Assembly (NCBI GenBank): GCA_019244185.1
Contig: JAFATB010000008.1
Coordinates: forward strand, 1 to 53,190
Origin: Acidobacteriota bacterium
Lineage (GTDB): Bacteria; Acidobacteriota; Thermoanaerobaculia; Gp7-AA8
Length of the DNA: 53,190 bases
Direction of reading: 5' to 3'
A model generated the notes under the pieces. The model had not been told where the DNA came from. It did not search any database and was given only the letters and a program-made list of their open reading frames with translations. Shown here piece by piece: positions 37,874 through 53,126 of the stretch (within the stretch, counting starts at the first letter, position 1; each line of letters starts with the position of its first letter). The translations under genes and the position numbers were made by a program.

Positions 37874-40855
37874 CTACCAGATCAGGCGCAATCCGAGCTG
37901 CATCTGGCGCGGATCGCCCACGCCGCTCTGCACCGTGCCGTCGAAGTTGAAGATGAGGTTCGTGACCTCGGGGCGCCGGAGATTCTTGCTATTGAAGAGA
38001 TTGAAGACGTCGAGCGCCGGCTCGACCGTGAGGCCGTTCACGACGAACGGTTTCGACAGGCGCAGATCGAGCGACGAGTACTGATTGTCCTTGCGCCCGA
38101 GGTTGCGCTTCGTGACAGAGCCGTCGGGATTGATGCGGTCCTGCGGCGTCGCGGCGTCCGTGCCGTCCGCCTTGATCGACTTCGGCTGCGCGGAGCGGTA
38201 CGAGTAGCGCAGGTTGAGATCGACGCCGTGCGGCGCGTTCCACAGCAGCCACGAGTTCACGCGGTGGCGCTGGTCGCGATCGGAGTAGCTGTACTCCGCG
38301 TCGAGATCGGTGACCTTCGCATAGCGGAACGAGAACGGGTCGCGCTCGTTGTCGTCGTCGGAGAGGTCTTTCGAATACGTGTAGTACGCCTGGAACTGCA
38401 GGTTGTGCGACGGGCGCTTCGTGACGCCGAGCGTCCAGCCGCGATAGAGGCTCTTCGCCGTCGACTCGACGACCGTCAGCGTGTTGATGCCGTTCGCGCC
38501 GGCGGGATCGAGCCCCGTGCTCCACGGCGACCCGAGAAGCGGATCGTTGCGGTTCACGAAGCGCGTGATGTGATCGCCCTTCGCGTAGTTGTACTTGATT
38601 AGGAACGCGTAGTCCTTGATGAGCTCCTGCTCCCAGCCGAGCGCGTACGACGTCGTGCGCGGGTTCTGGAAGTTTTTGTCGAACACGAAGACGTCGGGCA
38701 GGAACGGCGCGCCGATCTGATCGGCGGGGATGAGGTTCGGATACGCGGGCACGGGACCGAGCACGCCCGTCAGCGCGGAGTTGCGGAAGATCGACTGCCC
38801 GCGGCTGCCGTTCGTCGAACGCGACGACGCGAGCGTGAGACCGGGAACGCGTCCGTAGAAGATGCCCGCGCTGCCGCGCAGCACCTTCTTGCCGTCGCCG
38901 CCGGGATTCCACGAGAAGCCGAGGCGCGGCTGCCACATGCTGTAGTCGGACGGGATCGTGCCGTCGGACGGGAACTCCTGACCGTTGCGCGTCTGGCCGA
39001 TGAACTTCGTGTAGAAGACCTGCGACGGCGGCGTGATCGGATCGGGCTCGATCTCCGCTTCCCAGCGCAGTCCGTACTGGACGTTGAGATTCGGCGTGGC
39101 CTGCCACGAGTCCTGCACGAACACCGCGGGCTCGGTCTGCGGAATGCTCTGCGTGCCCGCGTCTTCGACGGAGAGGCCACCGACGCCGGCCTGCTGCAGA
39201 TAGAGGAGCACGGGACCGGTGATGTCGGCGCCGGTCGGGCATGTCCCCGTCTGCGACGAGCTGCCGTCGGAGCATTCGACGTAGTGCGGATTCGCGAGGT
39301 AGTTGAGGAAGCCGTCGGTGGAACTGAAGATGTAGCGGCCGTTCGCGAAGCCGACGAACGTCTGCACGGAGTTCACGCGGTTGTACTCGGCGCCGACTTT
39401 GATCGAGTGCGCGCCGCGCAGGAACGACACGTTGTCGTTGAGCTGCACGCGCGTGTCGTAATACTTCACCGGGATGAAGAACGGCTCGCCGAAGCGATAG
39501 CTGTTCGCGAAGTCGAACGCGGTGTCGGGCAGCGGCCGATTCTGGCCGTTGATGTCGGGACCTTCGTACGTGCGCGGACGGTCTTCGCGCGCGTACTGGA
39601 AGCGCATCTCGTTGAGCAGGTTGCTGCTGAGAGTCGAGATGATCGAGCCGGTGCCGGCGTTCGAGCGGTCCTTCTCGGTCGCGTTCGCGCTGCGGCCCCA
39701 CGAGTCGACGTCGAACGTGCCGTTCTTCTGCTCGGACCACGTGTAGTTGTAGCGCCCCGTGACGATCGTGCGCTGGCCGAGGTTCCAGTCGACTTTGCCG
39801 AGGAACACGCGCGCGTCGTTGGTGCGATCGATGGGAAGGTTCTCGCCGGATGAGCCGAGCGACGCGAGCGCGGCCACGACGCGCGGATCGATGCGCGAGG
39901 CGTCGGTCTGCTTCGTGGAGCTCGCCTTCTGCACATCGAGCGCGGTGAAGTAGAAGACCTTGTCGCGCACGATCGGGCCGCCGAGCGTGAAGCCGGTCTG
40001 GTATTGCTTCGAATCGAACTTCGGCGATTCCGTGCCGTCGGGATTCTTCGGGTTCGACGACAGCGCGTCGTTCTTGAGCACGAAGTGCGCGGTGCCGGAC
40101 ATGTCGTTCGTGCCCGACTTCGTGATGACGTTCACGAAGCCCGACTGCGAGCGGCCGAACTCCGCGTTCGCGCCGTCGGCGACGACGACGAGCTCTTTCA
40201 CGGCGTCGAGGTTGAACGTGAACGCCGGACGCTGGCCGCCGCGCTGCTCGCCGAAGAACGGGTTGTTGAAGTCGGCGCCGTCGACGGAGACGTTGTTGGA
40301 GATGCCTTTCTGCCCGTTGATGGACAGCTCGTCGCCGTCCGGCCCCTGCACGATCGTGACGCCCGGCGTGAGCTTCGTCAGCTCGAGGAAGTTGCGGCCG
40401 TTGTTCGGCAGATTGGAGACCGCGTCTTCGTCGATGCGCGTCGCGCCTTCCGTGCGCGCGGTCTCGATCAGCGGCGCTTCCGCCGTCACGACGAGCTCCT
40501 CGGCCACCGCGGCCTGCGCGAGCTTGAAGTTCGCGGTGAGCGTCTGCCCGAGGCCGAGGTCGAGGCCCTTGCGCACCTGCGTCGCGAAGCCGCTGAGCGA
40601 GGCGCGCACCTCGTACGGACCGAGCGGCAGCAGCACGCCGCGGTAGCGGCCCGCGGAGTCGGTCTGGATGGTTTGCTCGTAGTTCGTGGCGACGTCGTGC
40701 AGCACGACCGTCACGCCCGGCAGCACGCCGCCCGACGCGTCGGTGACGACACCCTCGATGACGCCGGTGGTGGCTTGCGACTGGGCGAAGAGAACGAGAG
40801 GAAGAAACGCCAGGACGAGAGCGAGCACCGACCGGAGAAGGGACGAACGGCGCAT
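37874..40855 (-). CDS. TonB-dependent receptor (Oar-like)
   Basis: Signal peptide, GVVTDASGGVLPGVTV, AEFGRSQSGFVNVITKSGTN, C-terminal W and an AAGGAGG RBS. Confidence 0.93.
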   Translation of the reverse strand: MRRSSLLRSVLALVLAFLPLVLFAQSQATTGVIEGVVTDASGGVLPGVTVVLHDVATNYEQTIQTDSAGRYRGVLLPLGPYEVRASLSGFATQVRKGLDLGLGQTLTANFKLAQAAVAEELVVTAEAPLIETARTEGATRIDEDAVSNLPNNGRNFLELTKLTPGVTIVQGPDGDELSINGQKGISNNVSVDGADFNNPFFGEQRGGQRPAFTFNLDAVKELVVVADGANAEFGRSQSGFVNVITKSGTNDMSGTAHFVLKNDALSSNPKNPDGTESPKFDSKQYQTGFTLGGPIVRDKVFYFTALDVQKASSTKQTDASRIDPRVVAALASLGSSGENLPIDRTNDARVFLGKVDWNLGQRTIVTGRYNYTWSEQKNGTFDVDSWGRSANATEKDRSNAGTGSIISTLSSNLLNEMRFQYAREDRPRTYEGPDINGQNRPLPDTAFDFANSYRFGEPFFIPVKYYDTRVQLNDNVSFLRGAHSIKVGAEYNRVNSVQTFVGFANGRYIFSSTDGFLNYLANPHYVECSDGSSSQTGTCPTGADITGPVLLYLQQAGVGGLSVEDAGTQSIPQTEPAVFVQDSWQATPNLNVQYGLRWEAEIEPDPITPPSQVFYTKFIGQTRNGQEFPSDGTIPSDYSMWQPRLGFSWNPGGDGKKVLRGSAGIFYGRVPGLTLASSRSTNGSRGQSIFRNSALTGVLGPVPAYPNLIPADQIGAPFLPDVFVFDKNFQNPRTTSYALGWEQELIKDYAFLIKYNYAKGDHITRFVNRNDPLLGSPWSTGLDPAGANGINTLTVVESTAKSLYRGWTLGVTKRPSHNLQFQAYYTYSKDLSDDDNERDPFSFRYAKVTDLDAEYSYSDRDQRHRVNSWLLWNAPHGVDLNLRYSYRSAQPKSIKADGTDAATPQDRINPDGSVTKRNLGRKDNQYSSLDLRLSKPFVVNGLTVEPALDVFNLFNSKNLRRPEVTNLIFNFDGTVQSGVGDPRQMQLGLRLIW

Positions 40856-40900
40856 GGGGCCTCCTTATCCGCGAACGAACCGTATTGGACTTGTGCGTTC

Positions 40901-40929
40901 ACGATAGGCCGGGGGCCGGAAAACGTCAA
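40901..40929 (-). promoter_or_regulatory. sigma70 promoter of the TBDR gene
   Basis: TTGACG (40924-29), 17 nt, TATCGT (40901-06). Confidence 0.6.
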
Positions 40930-40952
40930 ACGATCGCGTGTCAAGAATCCGG

Positions 40953-41005
40953 TTGCGCAACGGCCCGGCAAGTGCTAAATTTTCAGCAGTGCTAAAAAAT
41001 CAACA
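40953..41005 (+). promoter_or_regulatory. blaI-like promoter with two tandem operator-like boxes
   Basis: TTGCGC, 17 nt, TAAATT. Boxes TGCTAAATTTTCAGCA (40973-88) and TGCTAAAAAATCAACA (40990-41005) overlap the -10 and +1 positions. Confidence 0.7.
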
Positions 41006-41018
41006 CACGGAGACCGGA

Positions 41019-41405
41019 ATGCAACGACCTACGGGACAACTGAGCCGGCGCGAGCGCGAGATGATGGACATCGTCTTTCGCAGCGGCCGCGCGACCGCCG
41101 GCGAAGTGCAGGAAGCGATGCAGGATGCGCCGACGTATTCGGCCGTGCGCGCGACGCTGCGCATCCTCGAACAGAAAGGGCTGCTGCGTCACGAGACGGA
41201 CGGCAATCGCTACGTCTACCGGCCGGCGGTGAACCGCGATCGCGAACGGCGCGGCGCGCTGCACCATCTGCTGGACACGTTCTTCGACGGCTCGATCGCG
41301 AACGTCGTGGCCACGCTGCTGGAGAAGCCGGGAAAGAAGCTCGACGACGACGAACTGCAGCGCATCGAACGCCTCATCGCTGACGCACGAAAGGAAGGCC
41401 GCTGA
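41019..41405 (+). CDS. BlaI/MecI/CopY family repressor
   Basis: LSRREREMMD, TYSAVRATLRILEQKG, YVYRP and LLDTFFDGS. Confidence 0.93.
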   Translation: MQRPTGQLSRREREMMDIVFRSGRATAGEVQEAMQDAPTYSAVRATLRILEQKGLLRHETDGNRYVYRPAVNRDRERRGALHHLLDTFFDGSIANVVATLLEKPGKKLDDDELQRIERLIADARKEGR

Positions 41406-43186
41406 TGATCCGCATGCTGATCGAAGTGACGCTGCTGGCCGGCATCGGACGGCTGGTGATGCTGGCGATGCCGCGGGCGTCGGCCGCGCTGCGCGCGGCG
41501 ATCGCCATCGCCACGCTGGCGGGCATGCTCGTGATTCCGCTGGTGAACGCGGCGGACGTAACGTGGCGTCTGCCGCTGCGCAACGCGCCGGTCGCGACCG
41601 TGATGGTTGATCGTTCGCCGACGGAAGCACCGGTTGCGCAGGTTGCGCCGGTTGCGCAGACGGTGCAGGCTGCGCCGCCAATGACGCTCGCGACGCGCGA
41701 GGCGGAGCCGCTGCCCGCCCCACCGCGCAACTGGCTGTTGTGGATTGCAGTGGTCGTCGCGGGATGCGCGCTGCTGCACGTCGCGTTCGGCGCGATCGCG
41801 GTGTCGGCACTTGCACGATCCGCCGATGTCGTGGACGAGCCGCTCGTCGTCGATGCCGTCGCACGCGCCGCGCGTCTGCTAGGGATTCGACGCGCGATTC
41901 GCGTCGTGGCCAGCGATCGCGTGCCGCTGCCGTCGTTGTGGGGCTTCCGCAAACCGGTGCTGCTGTTGCCGCGCGTGGCGCTGGCGTGGCCGGCCGAGCG
42001 ACTCGAGGCGGTGCTCCTGCACGAGCTCGCGCACGCGAAGCGTCACGACGTCGCGGCGCTGCTGTTCGCGCGTGTCGTGCGGTCGCTCTTCTGGTTCCAT
42101 CCACTGGCGTGGTCGCTCGAACGCGCGGCGCGCCGCGACTGCGAGCGCGCGTGCGACGATCTCGTGCTGCGCAGCGGCTGCGCGGCGTCGGCGTACGCGG
42201 ATCATCTGCTCGCGATCGCGCGCACGCTGCAACTCGCCGACGGACTCTCCGCGGCGGTGGCGATGTCGCGGCCGTCCGAGCTCGGCGAGCGCGTCGCGGC
42301 GATCCTTCAGCCGCAACGCAGCCGCAAGTCGATCTCGTGGCGGACGTGGACCGCCGTCGCCGCGATGACGTGCGCGCTCGCCATTCCGCTCGCGACGGTG
42401 CAACTCGTCGCGAAACCGGCGCCCACGCGGCAAGTCACGGCCACGCAAACGCGGTGGAGCATCGAAACCGTGCTCGATCGGACGGACGACGCGCGCACCG
42501 CGTTCCGCGAAGCCCGCTATGCCGACGCGATCCGCTTGTATCGAGAGGTGCTCGCGGCGCAGCCGGACGACGCCACGACGCGCTACAACCTCGCCTGCGC
42601 GTACGCGCGCCACGGCGACCGGCAGCTCGCGCTCGCAACGCTGCGCGACGCCGTCTACTCCGGCTACACCAACGCGGAGCACATGCTCGCCGACGACGAT
42701 CTCGCATCCATTCGCGGCTCCGAGATGGACGCGCTCGCGGCGCTGGCGCCGGAGCTCGTGCTCTCCGATCGCGGCGGCTGGGCCGCGGCCGCGCGGCGCT
42801 ACGAGGTCTTCGCGAACCGTCATCCCGAACTTCCGCGCGCGTGGTTCAACCTCGGATTCGCATTGGTCCGCTCCGGCGAAGAGCGCCGGGCCATCGATGC
42901 CTTCACGCGCGTCCGCAACATGGGCTATCGCCGCCCGACCGCTGCCTACAACATCGGCTGCGCGTTCGCGAAACTCGGCGATTCCTCCAGCGCGCTGCAG
43001 TGGCTGCATCGCGCGGAGGACGAAGGCTTCGACGTCGGCGCGCAGGCGGCGATGGATGACGACGTCGACACGCTTCGCACCGATCCGTGGCTCGCGTCGC
43101 TCATCACCGCGCGACGGGCGAAACTCGAGAAGAAGCACGACAAGGAGAAGAGCGAGAAGGACAAAGAGAAGGAGAAGTCAGAGTGA
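41405..43186 (+). CDS. M56 (BlaR1-like) metallopeptidase with C-terminal TPR domain
   Basis: TM segments, HELAH, WFHPLAW and ERACDD, with repeated YNLAC/FNLG/YNIGC TPR-like motifs. Confidence 0.92.
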   Translation: MIRMLIEVTLLAGIGRLVMLAMPRASAALRAAIAIATLAGMLVIPLVNAADVTWRLPLRNAPVATVMVDRSPTEAPVAQVAPVAQTVQAAPPMTLATREAEPLPAPPRNWLLWIAVVVAGCALLHVAFGAIAVSALARSADVVDEPLVVDAVARAARLLGIRRAIRVVASDRVPLPSLWGFRKPVLLLPRVALAWPAERLEAVLLHELAHAKRHDVAALLFARVVRSLFWFHPLAWSLERAARRDCERACDDLVLRSGCAASAYADHLLAIARTLQLADGLSAAVAMSRPSELGERVAAILQPQRSRKSISWRTWTAVAAMTCALAIPLATVQLVAKPAPTRQVTATQTRWSIETVLDRTDDARTAFREARYADAIRLYREVLAAQPDDATTRYNLACAYARHGDRQLALATLRDAVYSGYTNAEHMLADDDLASIRGSEMDALAALAPELVLSDRGGWAAAARRYEVFANRHPELPRAWFNLGFALVRSGEERRAIDAFTRVRNMGYRRPTAAYNIGCAFAKLGDSSSALQWLHRAEDEGFDVGAQAAMDDDVDTLRTDPWLASLITARRAKLEKKHDKEKSEKDKEKEKSE

Positions 43187-44100
43187 TCGCGGCGCTTCTT
43201 CTCGCCGCGACGCTTTCGATCGGCGATCCCGCGCCGCCGCTCACCGTCAACGCGTGGCTGCAGCAGCGGCAGCCGTCGGTCGTGCGTCAGGGAAAGGTGA
43301 GCGTCGTCGAATTCTGGGCGACGTGGTGCGGCCCGTGCGTCGCGAACATCGCGCACCTCACCGCGCTGCAGAAGAAATACGCGGCGCAGGGGTTGGTCGT
43401 GATCGGCGCGACCAGTCCGGACGCGTGGGGCAACGATCGCCACGCGGTCGAGGCGATCATCGCCGCGAAGGGCAAGGCGTTCGACTACGCGGTGGCGTGG
43501 CTGCCGCCGAACGGCGGCAAAGAAGACGGCATCCATCGCAATCCGTGGTTCCGCGCCGCCGGCGTCGCGTGGCTGCCGTGTGCGTTCGTCATCGATCGCC
43601 GCGGACGCCTGGCGTTCATCGGCGATCCGATGATGCTCGACGACATCCTGCCGGCGATCCTCGACGGCCGCTGGGATCTCGCCGCCGCGCGTCGCAGTGA
43701 AGAGTCGTCGCGCAAGGCACGCGGCTTCGTCGCCGGCATGCAGACCGCGATCGACGCCGGCGATGCCGCGAAGGCGCTGCGGCTCGCCCGTTCCGCGCTC
43801 GCCGCGGGATCCGACGATCCGCGAACGCTGCTGCTCGTGGCCTCGACGATGTCGGACGAGAAGCACGCCCCGTCGCGTGCGAGCCTCGACGTCGCGCTGC
43901 AGGCCGCCGAGCGCGCGGTGGCGCTGACGAAGTCGCAGTCGTCCGGCATGCTCGACGCGCTCGCGCACGTGTTGTTCGTGCGCGGCGACGTGCGCAAAGC
44001 GATCGACGCCGAGTCGCGTGCAATCGCGCTCTCCGAAGGCGCCATGCGCGAGGCGCAGCGCGCGAACCTCGCGAAGTACCGCGCGGCAACGCGTTCGTAG
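43183..44100 (+). CDS. TlpA-like thioredoxin/redoxin with C-terminal helical (TPR-like) region
   Basis: IGDPAPPL, EFWATWCGPC and LPCAFVIDRRG. GTGA overlap with the upstream gene. Confidence 0.88.
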   Translation: MIAALLLAATLSIGDPAPPLTVNAWLQQRQPSVVRQGKVSVVEFWATWCGPCVANIAHLTALQKKYAAQGLVVIGATSPDAWGNDRHAVEAIIAAKGKAFDYAVAWLPPNGGKEDGIHRNPWFRAAGVAWLPCAFVIDRRGRLAFIGDPMMLDDILPAILDGRWDLAAARRSEESSRKARGFVAGMQTAIDAGDAAKALRLARSALAAGSDDPRTLLLVASTMSDEKHAPSRASLDVALQAAERAVALTKSQSSGMLDALAHVLFVRGDVRKAIDAESRAIALSEGAMREAQRANLAKYRAATRS

Positions 44101-44459: not shown

Positions 44460-48698
<4,239 letters not shown>

Positions 48699-48747
48699 TT
48701 TGCGCCTCCCCTTTTGGTCAGGAGCGATGTTCAGGAGCGATTCGTAA

Positions 48748-48936
48748 TCAGTTGTCCGTCGTCGTCGGGTGCGGGAAATTCAGCTTGACGTCACTTCCGA
48801 AGCACTCCCAGCACGGCGCTTCCCATTCGGTATCGCCGCTGTGGAAGTGCACAGTCATGCGGATGGCGCCCATGCCGTGACAAGCACGGCACGAGGCGTT
48901 GGGCATCCGCGACAGCGTCATCGTCCTGCGTCCCAT
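48748..48936 (-). CDS. small DnaJ-type zinc-finger protein (hypothetical) between rpoB and rpoC
   Basis: CRACHGMG-x18-CWECFG. AGGTGA SD-like sequence overlaps the rpoB stop. Same strand as rpoB and rpoC. Confidence 0.65.
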
Positions 48937-48944
48937 GAAGTCAC

Positions 48945-53126
<4,182 letters not shown>

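Follow-up and report, generated by a model that had tools for sequence, protein, structure and literature searches.

A conserved zinc-hairpin gene between rpoB and rpoC in one uncultured clade of Acidobacteriota, a candidate partner of RNA polymerase

The stretch of DNA analyzed here (the window) comprises 53,190 nucleotides (nt) of contig JAFATB010000008.1 from the Acidobacteriota assembly GCA_019244185.1, assigned to Thermoanaerobaculia. Its minus strand carries, in this order, rpoB, an open reading frame (ORF) of 62 codons, and rpoC (Table 1). The gap between rpoB and rpoC measures 246 nt (48699-48944), and the ATG of the small ORF lies 8 nt past the rpoB stop. The encoded peptide contains C16-R-A-C-H-G-M-G23, then 18 residues, then C42-W-E-C-F-G47. 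The initial annotation of this stretch had described a co-directional 62-codon ORF, starting 8 nt after the rpoB stop behind a Shine-Dalgarno-like AGGTGA in a 246-nt gap, and all of these features are present. The comparisons below show a conserved gene for a zinc finger protein of 62 amino acid residues (aa), located between rpoB and rpoC in one uncultured clade of Acidobacteriota; its product is a candidate partner of the polymerase.

A search of 60 relatives, including 34 other genomes of the same genus, returned full-length, stop-free matches in 28 of these 34 genomes and in one genome of a second genus, with 63-92% identity and E values from 5e-26 to 7e-40. With the window counted, the ORF separates the rpoB stop from the rpoC start in each of the 30 loci (two of which, G002 and G024, come from unpublished genomes on which the result does not depend). 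Its ATG occupies the same aligned position throughout, and its length is 61-64 aa in these loci and 61-65 aa across the protein family. This pattern is compatible with the six genus mates in which no match was found, because four of them (G009, G016, G026 and G034) are assemblies without the rpoB 3' end and the other two have only a divergent rpoB (82-84%, versus 98-100% in true genus mates), which looks foreign to the genus and is separated from rpoC by a gap of 84-93 nt with no ORF.

Substitutions in the ORF follow a coding pattern. Mean pairwise differences at codon positions 1, 2 and 3 are 0.154, 0.146 and 0.355, respectively, third positions being the most variable, and Nei-Gojobori estimates over 435 pairs gave a pS of 0.489 and a pN of 0.145, with a maximum ratio of nonsynonymous to synonymous change (dN/dS) of 0.495. 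The sense frame is open in all 44 distinct nucleotide versions, whereas the other five frames are open in 0-22 of the 44. Fourteen residues are invariant in 42 sequences with identity down to 52%, namely M1, P12, C16, C19, G21, G23, T28, F31, G34, E39, C42, C45, P55 and P57. At position 20, distant members have Gln or Gly in place of His, which is therefore not a ligand. The initial annotation had proposed to look for conserved cysteines, for a dN/dS below 1, and for stops or frameshifts in orthologous intergenic regions: the four cysteines are invariant (42/42), the median dN/dS is 0.195, and the ORF is intact in every one of 43 species-representative loci. Judged from these alignments, the small ORF is a genuine gene under purifying selection on its amino acid sequence. 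The existence of the gene and the fold of its product, described below, form the part of our explanation that very probably holds.

Table 1. Features of the rpoB-rpoC region and of the genes downstream of it, in positions of the window.
Feature	Position	Strand	Description	Basis
rpoB	48945..53126	minus	RNA polymerase beta, 1393 aa; TAG stop 48947-48945	translation
Ribosome-binding region of small gene	48941..48953	minus	AAGGAA 48953-48948 and AGGTGA 48946-48941	
Small ORF	48748..48936	minus	62 aa; ATG 48936-48934; TGA stop 48750-48748	
Spacer between small gene and rpoC	48699..48747	minus	49 nt, non-coding; holds rpoC ribosome site	
rpoC	44460..48698	minus	RNA polymerase beta', 1412 aa; TTG start	translation
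Thioredoxin/AhpC-like gene	43087-44100	plus	downstream of rpoC	
BlaR1-type M56 peptidase with TPR repeats	41405-43186	plus	downstream of rpoC	
TonB-dependent-receptor-like outer-membrane protein	37874-40855	minus	beyond the plus-strand genes	

The rpoB gene of the window is, by comparison with its relatives, an assembly chimera joined within a conserved rpoB stretch. When RpoB was compared with two genus mates in sliding blocks of 50 aa, residues 1 to ~520 showed 6-64% identity per block, whereas blocks from the one starting at residue 518 onward showed 82-100%. The native part of rpoB corresponds to the C-terminal ~830 aa and the foreign part to the N-terminal ~520-560 aa (~nt 51450-53126), which looks proteobacterial; rpoB begins 64 nt from the contig end. 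The junction falls near nt 51.4-51.6 kb, within rpoB and ~2.5 kb from the small ORF on its far side. The chimera leaves the finding untouched because the same arrangement recurs in many other assemblies, which agrees with the view of the initial annotation that the junction does not explain the ORF. The sequences that flank the ORF directly, namely the last 250 aa of RpoB and the first 250 aa of RpoC, are 95-98% identical to those of genus mates, and both zinc sites of the window RpoC appear intact by eye (the first reads CLCG...CDKCG).

Downstream, rpoC closes its minus-strand gene run and is followed by convergent plus-strand genes (window 37874-44100; Table 1). The usual rpsL-rpsG-fusA genes are not found behind rpoC in the window.

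Signals for translation of the small gene are built into the end of rpoB. In the window, AAGGAA forms the last two rpoB sense codons, AGGTGA overlaps the TAG stop, and the ATG stands 4 nt beyond. In 27 of 30 related loci, rpoB likewise ends with Lys-Glu encoded as AAGGAR, a Shine-Dalgarno sequence 5-12 nt before the ATG. The distance from the rpoB stop to the ATG is 2-9 nt in 26 of the 30 loci and 51-129 nt in the other four because of inserted GC-rich palindromes; among the 43 species-representative loci, the ATG lies within 10 nt of the rpoB stop in 36. Translation of the small gene looks coupled to the end of rpoB, or may depend on re-initiation there. The AAGGAR-type end of rpoB is also present in relatives without the ORF, and therefore a ribosome site was already available at this position before the ORF.

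The stretch that follows the small gene is less regular. The spacer between the ORF stop and rpoC ranges from 19 to 98 nt in the 30 loci and from 12 to 105 nt in 42 of the 43 species-representative loci, and with such variation its length appears free of constraint. In the window this spacer contains an 11-nt direct repeat, ATCGCTCCTGA, at 48741-48731 and 48728-48718 (13 nt apart), which looks like a small local duplication. The ribosome site of rpoC itself, GGGAGG (48710-48705), lies 6 nt before its TTG start (48696-48698), and the TTG is shared by 29 of the 30 and 42 of the 43 related loci as well as by same-order outgroups, which is an unusual degree of conservation for a non-ATG start in an essential gene. 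The interval 48400-49300 showed no promoter-like or terminator-like site, and searches against Rfam gave no match at E<=1 in the region; a reading of the locus as an RNA element was rejected on both grounds. The initial annotation had also considered a zinc-responsive element affecting rpoC. This proposal found no support: the spacer is variable (12-105 nt), rpoC has a GGAGG site of its own, the results for Rfam, promoters and terminators are negative, and selection acts on the amino acid sequence and not only on the act of translation.

Co-expression with the core polymerase genes, which the initial annotation had suggested, is in line with the co-directional placement of the ORF, which puts it in the rpoBC message. 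In three of four metatranscriptome runs from soil and ice, the ORF is covered by contigs that are 85-95% alike, and in two runs, which belong to different studies, contigs join the ORF to the 3' end of rpoB. These runs hold 14-23% of the sampled words, the contigs are short and strandless, and the libraries may contain DNA; they hint weakly that the small gene is co-transcribed with rpoB.

At the protein level, the initial annotation had recognized a single DnaJ-type CxxCxGxG zinc-finger pair; the window protein has this pair, as CxxCxGxG and CxxCxG, and its four cysteines are kept in all 42 family members. In the first motif, C16, C19, G21 and G23 are invariant (42/42), and in the second C42 and C45 are invariant, G47 occurs in at least 90% of members and the final Gly is missing. 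The protein consists of a basic N-terminal tail (residues 1-15), the first zinc knuckle (C16xxC19xG21xG23), a beta hairpin (24-31 and 34-41), the second zinc knuckle (C42xxC45xG47) and a conserved end, F/L-P-x-P-x-x-x-D-N. Its charges are unevenly spread, with five Arg and no acidic residue in positions 1-34 and six acidic residues and one basic residue in positions 35-62.

The window protein matches the Pfam model DnaJ_CXXCXGXG (PF00684) with residues 14-49 aligned to profile positions 16-51 of 65 (E 4e-5), and its score of 24.2 bits is under the gathering cut-off of 32.7 bits. All 42 family members match this model at E<=0.01 (best E 2.8e-6), and some relatives carry a precomputed PF00684 label. 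With only two motifs in 61-65 aa, the match covers the inner hairpin alone, and not the full set of four motifs and two centres. When the window's own genome was searched with PF00684, the hits comprised dnaJ on another contig (60.3 bits, positions 1-65), the small ORF (23.1 bits) and two UvrA-sized ORFs (22.1 and 21.7 bits, at the same profile positions as the small ORF). Because the UvrA-like ORFs match the model at the same positions and with the same scores, we place the small protein in the same hairpin class as the UvrA finger. Direct comparison with UvrA gave 8 identities in 16 positions, in the first arm only. In searches of PDB sequences with the family profile, the DnaJ zinc finger 1exk (E 0.06) and UvrA 3ux8 (E 0.16) were aligned across the whole hairpin.

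An AlphaFold2 model built from an alignment of 42 sequences (mean predicted local distance difference test score, pLDDT, 77.4) shows a knuckle, two strands (24-31 and 34-41), a second knuckle and floppy tails; it holds one hairpin and a single 4-residue helical turn. An earlier model from 26 sequences has the same topology with a pLDDT of 67.8. Foldseek searches of the PDB with both models gave no match at E<=0.001 and a wide VIA-align search gave no chain with Z>=2, the protein being too small for such tools; UvrA and DnaJ recur among the non-significant top Foldseek rows, where they serve as leads only. Searches of the small protein found no J domain, no helix-turn-helix and no known polymerase-factor domain. 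In the modeled hairpin, the four invariant cysteines would hold one zinc ion at its base. The small protein is thus a one-centre version of a module that usually has two centres (DnaJ) or is located inside a large enzyme (UvrA).

We searched for this gene in one genome per species from 185,579 species and found 43 loci, all in metagenome-assembled genomes (MAGs) titled Thermoanaerobaculia or Acidobacteriota. The intact ORF is found directly 3' of rpoB in all 43, and rpoC comes next in 42. A scan of metagenomes added 57 loci with the ORF intact in each; rpoB is upstream in 56 of the 56 loci with enough flank, and rpoC is downstream in 56 of 56. Overall there are ~100 occurrences, each at the rpoB-rpoC position, and no second copy of the small gene was found in the genomes searched. 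Several candidate paralogues were rejected: a hit in G035:C7 (E 0.005) is off-frame inside a dehydrogenase-like ORF, a hit in G113:C28 (E 6.6e-4) is an unrelated small CxxCHGSG peptide, and second hits in the window's own genome have an E of about 1.

The family is also rare among known proteins. A search of 1.84 billion representative proteins with the family profile, unrestricted in length, returned eight proteins at E<=1e-3, five of which belong to the family, either as such or as truncated or frame-broken copies; a sixth, of 83 aa (E 4e-4), resembles a degraded copy, and the other two are long proteins with many CxxC motifs. The same search found no fusion to beta, beta' or any other protein: the two long hits (E 2e-6 and 1e-3) are multi-repeat CxxC proteins, and a 186-aa hit is out of frame after residue 28. 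A word-indexed protein search yielded 49 clusters, all with at least 60% identity, named either "hypothetical protein [Thermoanaerobaculia bacterium]" (NCBI) or "DnaJ-class molecular chaperone" (JGI). The JGI label is an over-annotation, because the small protein has 62 aa and no J domain and the true dnaJ is on another contig. In the ESM Atlas, only the family's own unnamed Acidobacteriota clusters were found, named neighbours (score <=0.90) being at chance level, and the sole tblastn hit in a phage collection was a DnaJ-domain protein of a Bacillus phage (E 0.3).

The initial annotation had supposed the gene to be lineage-specific and had pointed to rpoB-rpoC regions of Thermoanaerobaculia and other Acidobacteriota as the place to look; there the ORF is kept in one clade and missing outside it. 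It is absent from 20 of 20 outgroup rpoB-rpoC junctions (one representing the same taxonomic family, three the same order and 16 the same class), where gaps are 1-108 nt and tblastn gave no match. Within the taxonomic family, three further genera carry the ORF and two, represented by G035 and G125, do not; in the latter the ORF is absent from the whole genomes and not only from rpoBC. In a quick maximum-likelihood tree of the first ~380 RpoC residues, the 42 ORF-bearing rows fall on one side of a branch with a support of 87 (SH-like approximate likelihood-ratio test) and G035 is their sister, in groups defined by ORF presence itself and with L095 and L097 (too little sequence) and G125 omitted. 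By this tree, one gain would suffice to explain the distribution of the ORF.

For the phylum as a whole, we used 151 evenly drawn Acidobacteriota genomes, in 143 of which (including the unpublished G042, G106 and G198) the two anchors, one from the C-terminal end of rpoB and one from the N-terminal end of rpoC, share a contig and a strand. The median distance between the anchors is 117 nt, with 121 genomes below 200 nt, 21 at 200-399 nt and a single genome at 8330 nt. Within this sample, the window and three of its family mates are the sole carriers of the ORF, and inserted genes occur in just one further genome, in accord with the statement of the initial annotation that rpoB and rpoC are normally adjacent. 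Wide-gap genomes were examined as possible further carriers and rejected: in 14 loci drawn from the widest of the other anchor distances (224-324 nt), the distance is made up of C-terminal extensions of rpoB plus spacer, and the forward ORFs of 30-83 aa found there include none with a CxxC motif. The loci of family f39 as a whole (L108-L117; 234-324 nt) have an rpoB C-terminal extension ending in ...AAAD and a spacer of ~150-200 nt with forward ORFs of 30-54 aa that lack Cys motifs.

Other sequences occupy rpoB-rpoC spacers too. The one genome with inserted genes, G165, has rpoB and rpoC 8.3 kb apart (C5:102490-110940) and carries between them genes for an FG-GAP-repeat protein of 386 aa and an RHS-repeat protein of 1829 aa, an ORF of 243 aa on the opposite strand and an ORF of 219 aa directly after the RHS gene; the insert looks like a polymorphic-toxin-like cassette inside the rpoBC operon. 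In one MAG (L097 1693-3101), the small gene and rpoC are separated by an extra open frame of ~460 aa, which may reflect either a true insertion or an assembly error. GC-rich palindromic inserts of 50-140 nt that resemble repetitive extragenic palindromes (REP-like) are located between the rpoB stop and the small gene in seven of 43 loci (L064, L068, L069, L079, L084, L092 and L098). REP-like palindromes also fill the ORF-less 135-nt gap of G125 (L106 370-235), and one such repeat read in frame accounts for a false N-terminal extension of protein P0042.

We propose that the gene arrived in the rpoB-rpoC spacer a single time, in a common ancestor of several genera within one Thermoanaerobaculia family, and has remained in place. 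Its 7-kDa product would be transcribed within the rpoBC message, with translation coupled to the rpoB end; because the ATG follows the stop by 2-10 nt and the Shine-Dalgarno sequence comes from the last codons of rpoB, the protein would be made in step with beta. It may then act on RNA polymerase, either as a zinc-ribbon accessory subunit or as an assembly or holdase factor for beta and beta', and in this role it would resemble stand-alone DnaJ-type zinc-finger proteins that escort large complexes. By analogy with such precedents, and from its positional fidelity and its coupling to rpoB, we tentatively adopt a role on the polymerase, while judging it to fall somewhat short of probable. The evidence counted in its support is the set of ~100 occurrences locked to one position, with no relocated or second copy and a conserved coupling to rpoB. 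The narrower version, in which the protein is a near-stoichiometric accessory subunit that docks where the beta C-terminus meets the beta' N-terminus, is unlikely. Such a subunit, a zinc ribbon produced beside the beta chain as it is completed, would dock at the flap, the zinc-binding domain and the region of RNA exit, in the way that Q of phage lambda does with its zinc-ribbon arm, and would be a bacterial counterpart of RpoP/RpoN that affects assembly or pausing and termination. Folding of the small protein together with beta 1100-1393 and beta' 1-480, run with no controls, gave scores of 0.00 and 0.00 and is uninformative either way.

Several observations weigh against action on the polymerase. 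In the ORF-less G035, the beta C-terminus is 100% identical over 33 aa and the beta' N-terminus 94% identical over 250 aa, and in the ORF-less G037 the beta' N-terminus is 94.4% identical; because these sisters are as similar as ORF-bearing genomes, there is no sign of the polymerase adapting to a new partner. Divergence is far more rapid in the small protein (48-95% identity) than in its flanks (mostly 92-98%). It has no significant similarity to a known polymerase subunit or factor in Pfam searches up to E 10, and omega, delta, epsilon, RbpA and DksA/TraR are absent among Pfam and NCBIfam matches up to the same limit. Replacement of omega was ruled out, as omega (PF01192, rpoZ) is encoded elsewhere in the genome, and the match to a Q-like PHROG, detailed below, is weak. 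Position is weak evidence because the spacer takes unrelated cargo, as seen in the 8.3-kb cassette of G165, the additional ORF of L097 and the repeats. Finally, all carriers are MAGs of uncultured bacteria.

Much of this would fit a small zinc-hairpin protein whose target is not the polymerase and which landed in a permissive spacer, a doubtful alternative, although nearly as likely as the role on the polymerase. The target might be another regulator, in the manner of anti-TRAP, or the protein might be a general holdase, a thiol-disulfide or a zinc-handling mini-protein, kept in place by an operon that is constitutive, growth-coupled and rarely rearranged. The lack of visible co-adaptation in beta or beta' speaks for such a passenger, as do the unrelated genes in the same spacer (the RHS cassette of G165 and the L097 ORF) and the REP-like palindromes inserted in 7/43 loci and in G125. 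The fold class is also generic and has many partners, as in DnaJ, UvrA, anti-TRAP and the plant proteins BSD2, PSA2 and OR (passages of PMC4806229). A passenger would hardly account for the strict position across several genera, with ~100 occurrences and no relocated or duplicated copy, or for the start-stop coupling to rpoB, which is kept in most loci and is unneeded for an unrelated function.

Quite improbable is a nucleic-acid-binding autoregulator, in which the zinc hairpin and the basic N-terminal half would bind rpoBC mRNA or DNA and tune the synthesis of beta and beta'. The charge split between the two halves of the protein would suit this activity. The UvrA zinc finger has been implicated in DNA binding, and the UvrA-like ORFs of the same genome match PF00684 at the same positions and scores as the small ORF; the likeness to UvrA and Q is at the level of motif and hairpin only, however. 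The zinc-ribbon arm of lambda Q contacts the DNA major groove, according to sections of PMC9388147. Against autoregulation, neither a conserved RNA element nor an operator-like repeat was found at the locus, Rfam gave no hit, and the spacers vary in length and sequence.

There is a very slight chance that the ORF acts only in cis, so that ribosome transit over the spacer is what matters (through coupling, mRNA protection or anti-polarity for rpoC) and the peptide is incidental. The tight coupling to the rpoB stop agrees with this possibility, and so does the presence of the Shine-Dalgarno-like AAGGAR in ORF-less relatives, from which translation of the following sequence arises easily. A purely cis-acting ORF would not be expected to show purifying selection on amino acids (dN/dS 0.195, 14 invariant residues including four Cys) or a length fixed at 61-65 aa next to a downstream spacer of 12-105 nt; moreover, rpoC keeps its own strong ribosome site, and outgroups manage with 1-108-nt spacers and no ORF. 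That the ORF is not a gene, being a chance frame in a GC-rich spacer or an artefact of a chimeric contig, deserves next to no credence and is already refuted: the contig is chimeric ~2.5 kb away and long chance ORFs on both strands are common in the GC-rich window, but the junction is inside rpoB on the far side, the same ORF recurs at this position in the genomes of 43 other species and on 57 metagenome contigs, its frame, codon-position pattern and dN/dS are all coding-like, and the Pfam match is found in 42/42 members.

The rpoB and rpoC genes are among the most conserved neighbours in bacterial genomes, and in the sample of 143 Acidobacteriota genomes a conserved gene between them is found in this clade only. 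Lineage-specific polymerase partners, such as delta and epsilon in Firmicutes and RbpA and CarD in Actinobacteria, have changed the view of transcription in those groups; we know of no such partner for Acidobacteriota, a soil phylum that is abundant but has been poorly cultured. Should the small protein bind the polymerase, it would be without precedent as an accessory subunit with its gene inside rpoBC, and would offer a compact, testable model of how beta and beta' assemble co-translationally. Otherwise, the family would still show that a one-zinc hairpin of the DnaJ/UvrA type is viable as an independent 7-kDa protein under purifying selection and that the rpoB-rpoC spacer is a niche for new genes, and the public label "DnaJ-class molecular chaperone" would be corrected. 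No description of a conserved gene inside rpoB-rpoC was found in open-access PubMed Central and bioRxiv, and the literature found there that pairs a DnaJ-like zinc finger with RNA polymerase concerns plants only.

Comparison with known systems places the family closest to zinc hairpins of other proteins. Like centre II of DnaJ (PF00684; 1exk), the small protein has a CxxCxGxG knuckle, a beta hairpin and a CxxCxG knuckle, and DnaJ chains are among the non-significant best Foldseek rows, with a root-mean-square deviation of 1.9-2.1 A over 27 columns. Unlike DnaJ, which has four motifs and two centres, it has two motifs and one zinc centre, its inner-cysteine spacing is a 22-residue hairpin, and it lacks the J domain, G/F region and C-terminal domains. 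With the C-terminal zinc finger of UvrA (3ux8, 2r6f) it shares the pattern C-x-A-C-x-G-x-G-x-I-x-x-x-x-H-F...C-x-x-C-x-G, and UvrA chains take Foldseek ranks 2, 4 and 25 with 30-35% identity over 32-37 columns, none of them statistically significant. In contrast to the UvrA finger, the small protein stands alone instead of forming part of an ABC ATPase, and its hairpin exceeds that of UvrA by three residues.

Two other systems link such hairpins with large complexes or with the polymerase itself. DnaJ-type zinc-finger proteins without a J domain are described, in portions of PMC4806229 and PMC4080259, as assembly or maintenance factors of large complexes: BSD2 serves Rubisco, and pTAC5, which is associated with the transcriptionally active chromosome of plastids, protects their bacterial-type polymerase during heat. 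These sections present BSD2, PSA2, OR, LQY1 and pTAC5 as carrying the same motif without a J domain; the plant proteins differ from ours in having four motifs and two zinc centres, in being much larger and in being eukaryotic, and the likeness is one of motif only. The zinc-ribbon arm of lambda Q (7ubj-7ubn, 4mo1) is likewise a zinc hairpin of ~40 residues, and it docks on the zinc-binding domain of beta' and contacts the DNA major groove (parts of PMC9388147). The "Q-like" phrog_6060 matches the window protein weakly (E 0.012) and 37 of 42 members at E<=0.1 over nearly their whole length (best E 7.6e-4), phrog_127 matches two of 42 members, and Q chains of the PDB align to residues 11-23 only (E 0.5-1). 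Q is not in the top 50 Foldseek rows, and the small protein is without Q's four-helix body with its helix-turn-helix, which reads the Q-binding element; the recurrent Q-like PHROG match is a lead and no more.

Small zinc proteins do serve polymerases outside bacteria. The archaeal and eukaryotic RpoP/Rpb12 and RpoN/Rpb10 are zinc proteins of 45-70 aa that act as stoichiometric polymerase subunits and help assembly, and bacterial counterparts of them are not known to us. Their relation to the small protein is one of analogy only, with no sequence or fold match in our searches. In size and organization, the nearest parallel is anti-TRAP (RtpA) of Bacillus subtilis, a stand-alone protein of ~50-60 aa with a single DnaJ-like zinc centre that binds another protein. 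The window protein matches anti-TRAP models weakly (Pfam E 0.09, NCBIfam E 0.017), scoring 13.2 bits against a cut-off of 32 for PF15777 and 15.2 against 65 for NF058604 (RtpA). The differences are that only two of 42 members match at E<=0.01, that the small gene has an rpoBC setting and belongs to another phylum, and that no link to TRAP was seen, no search for a TRAP gene having been made. The family thus fails the anti-TRAP cut-offs; its fold class is a known one, and its stand-alone, one-centre form has an analogue in anti-TRAP.

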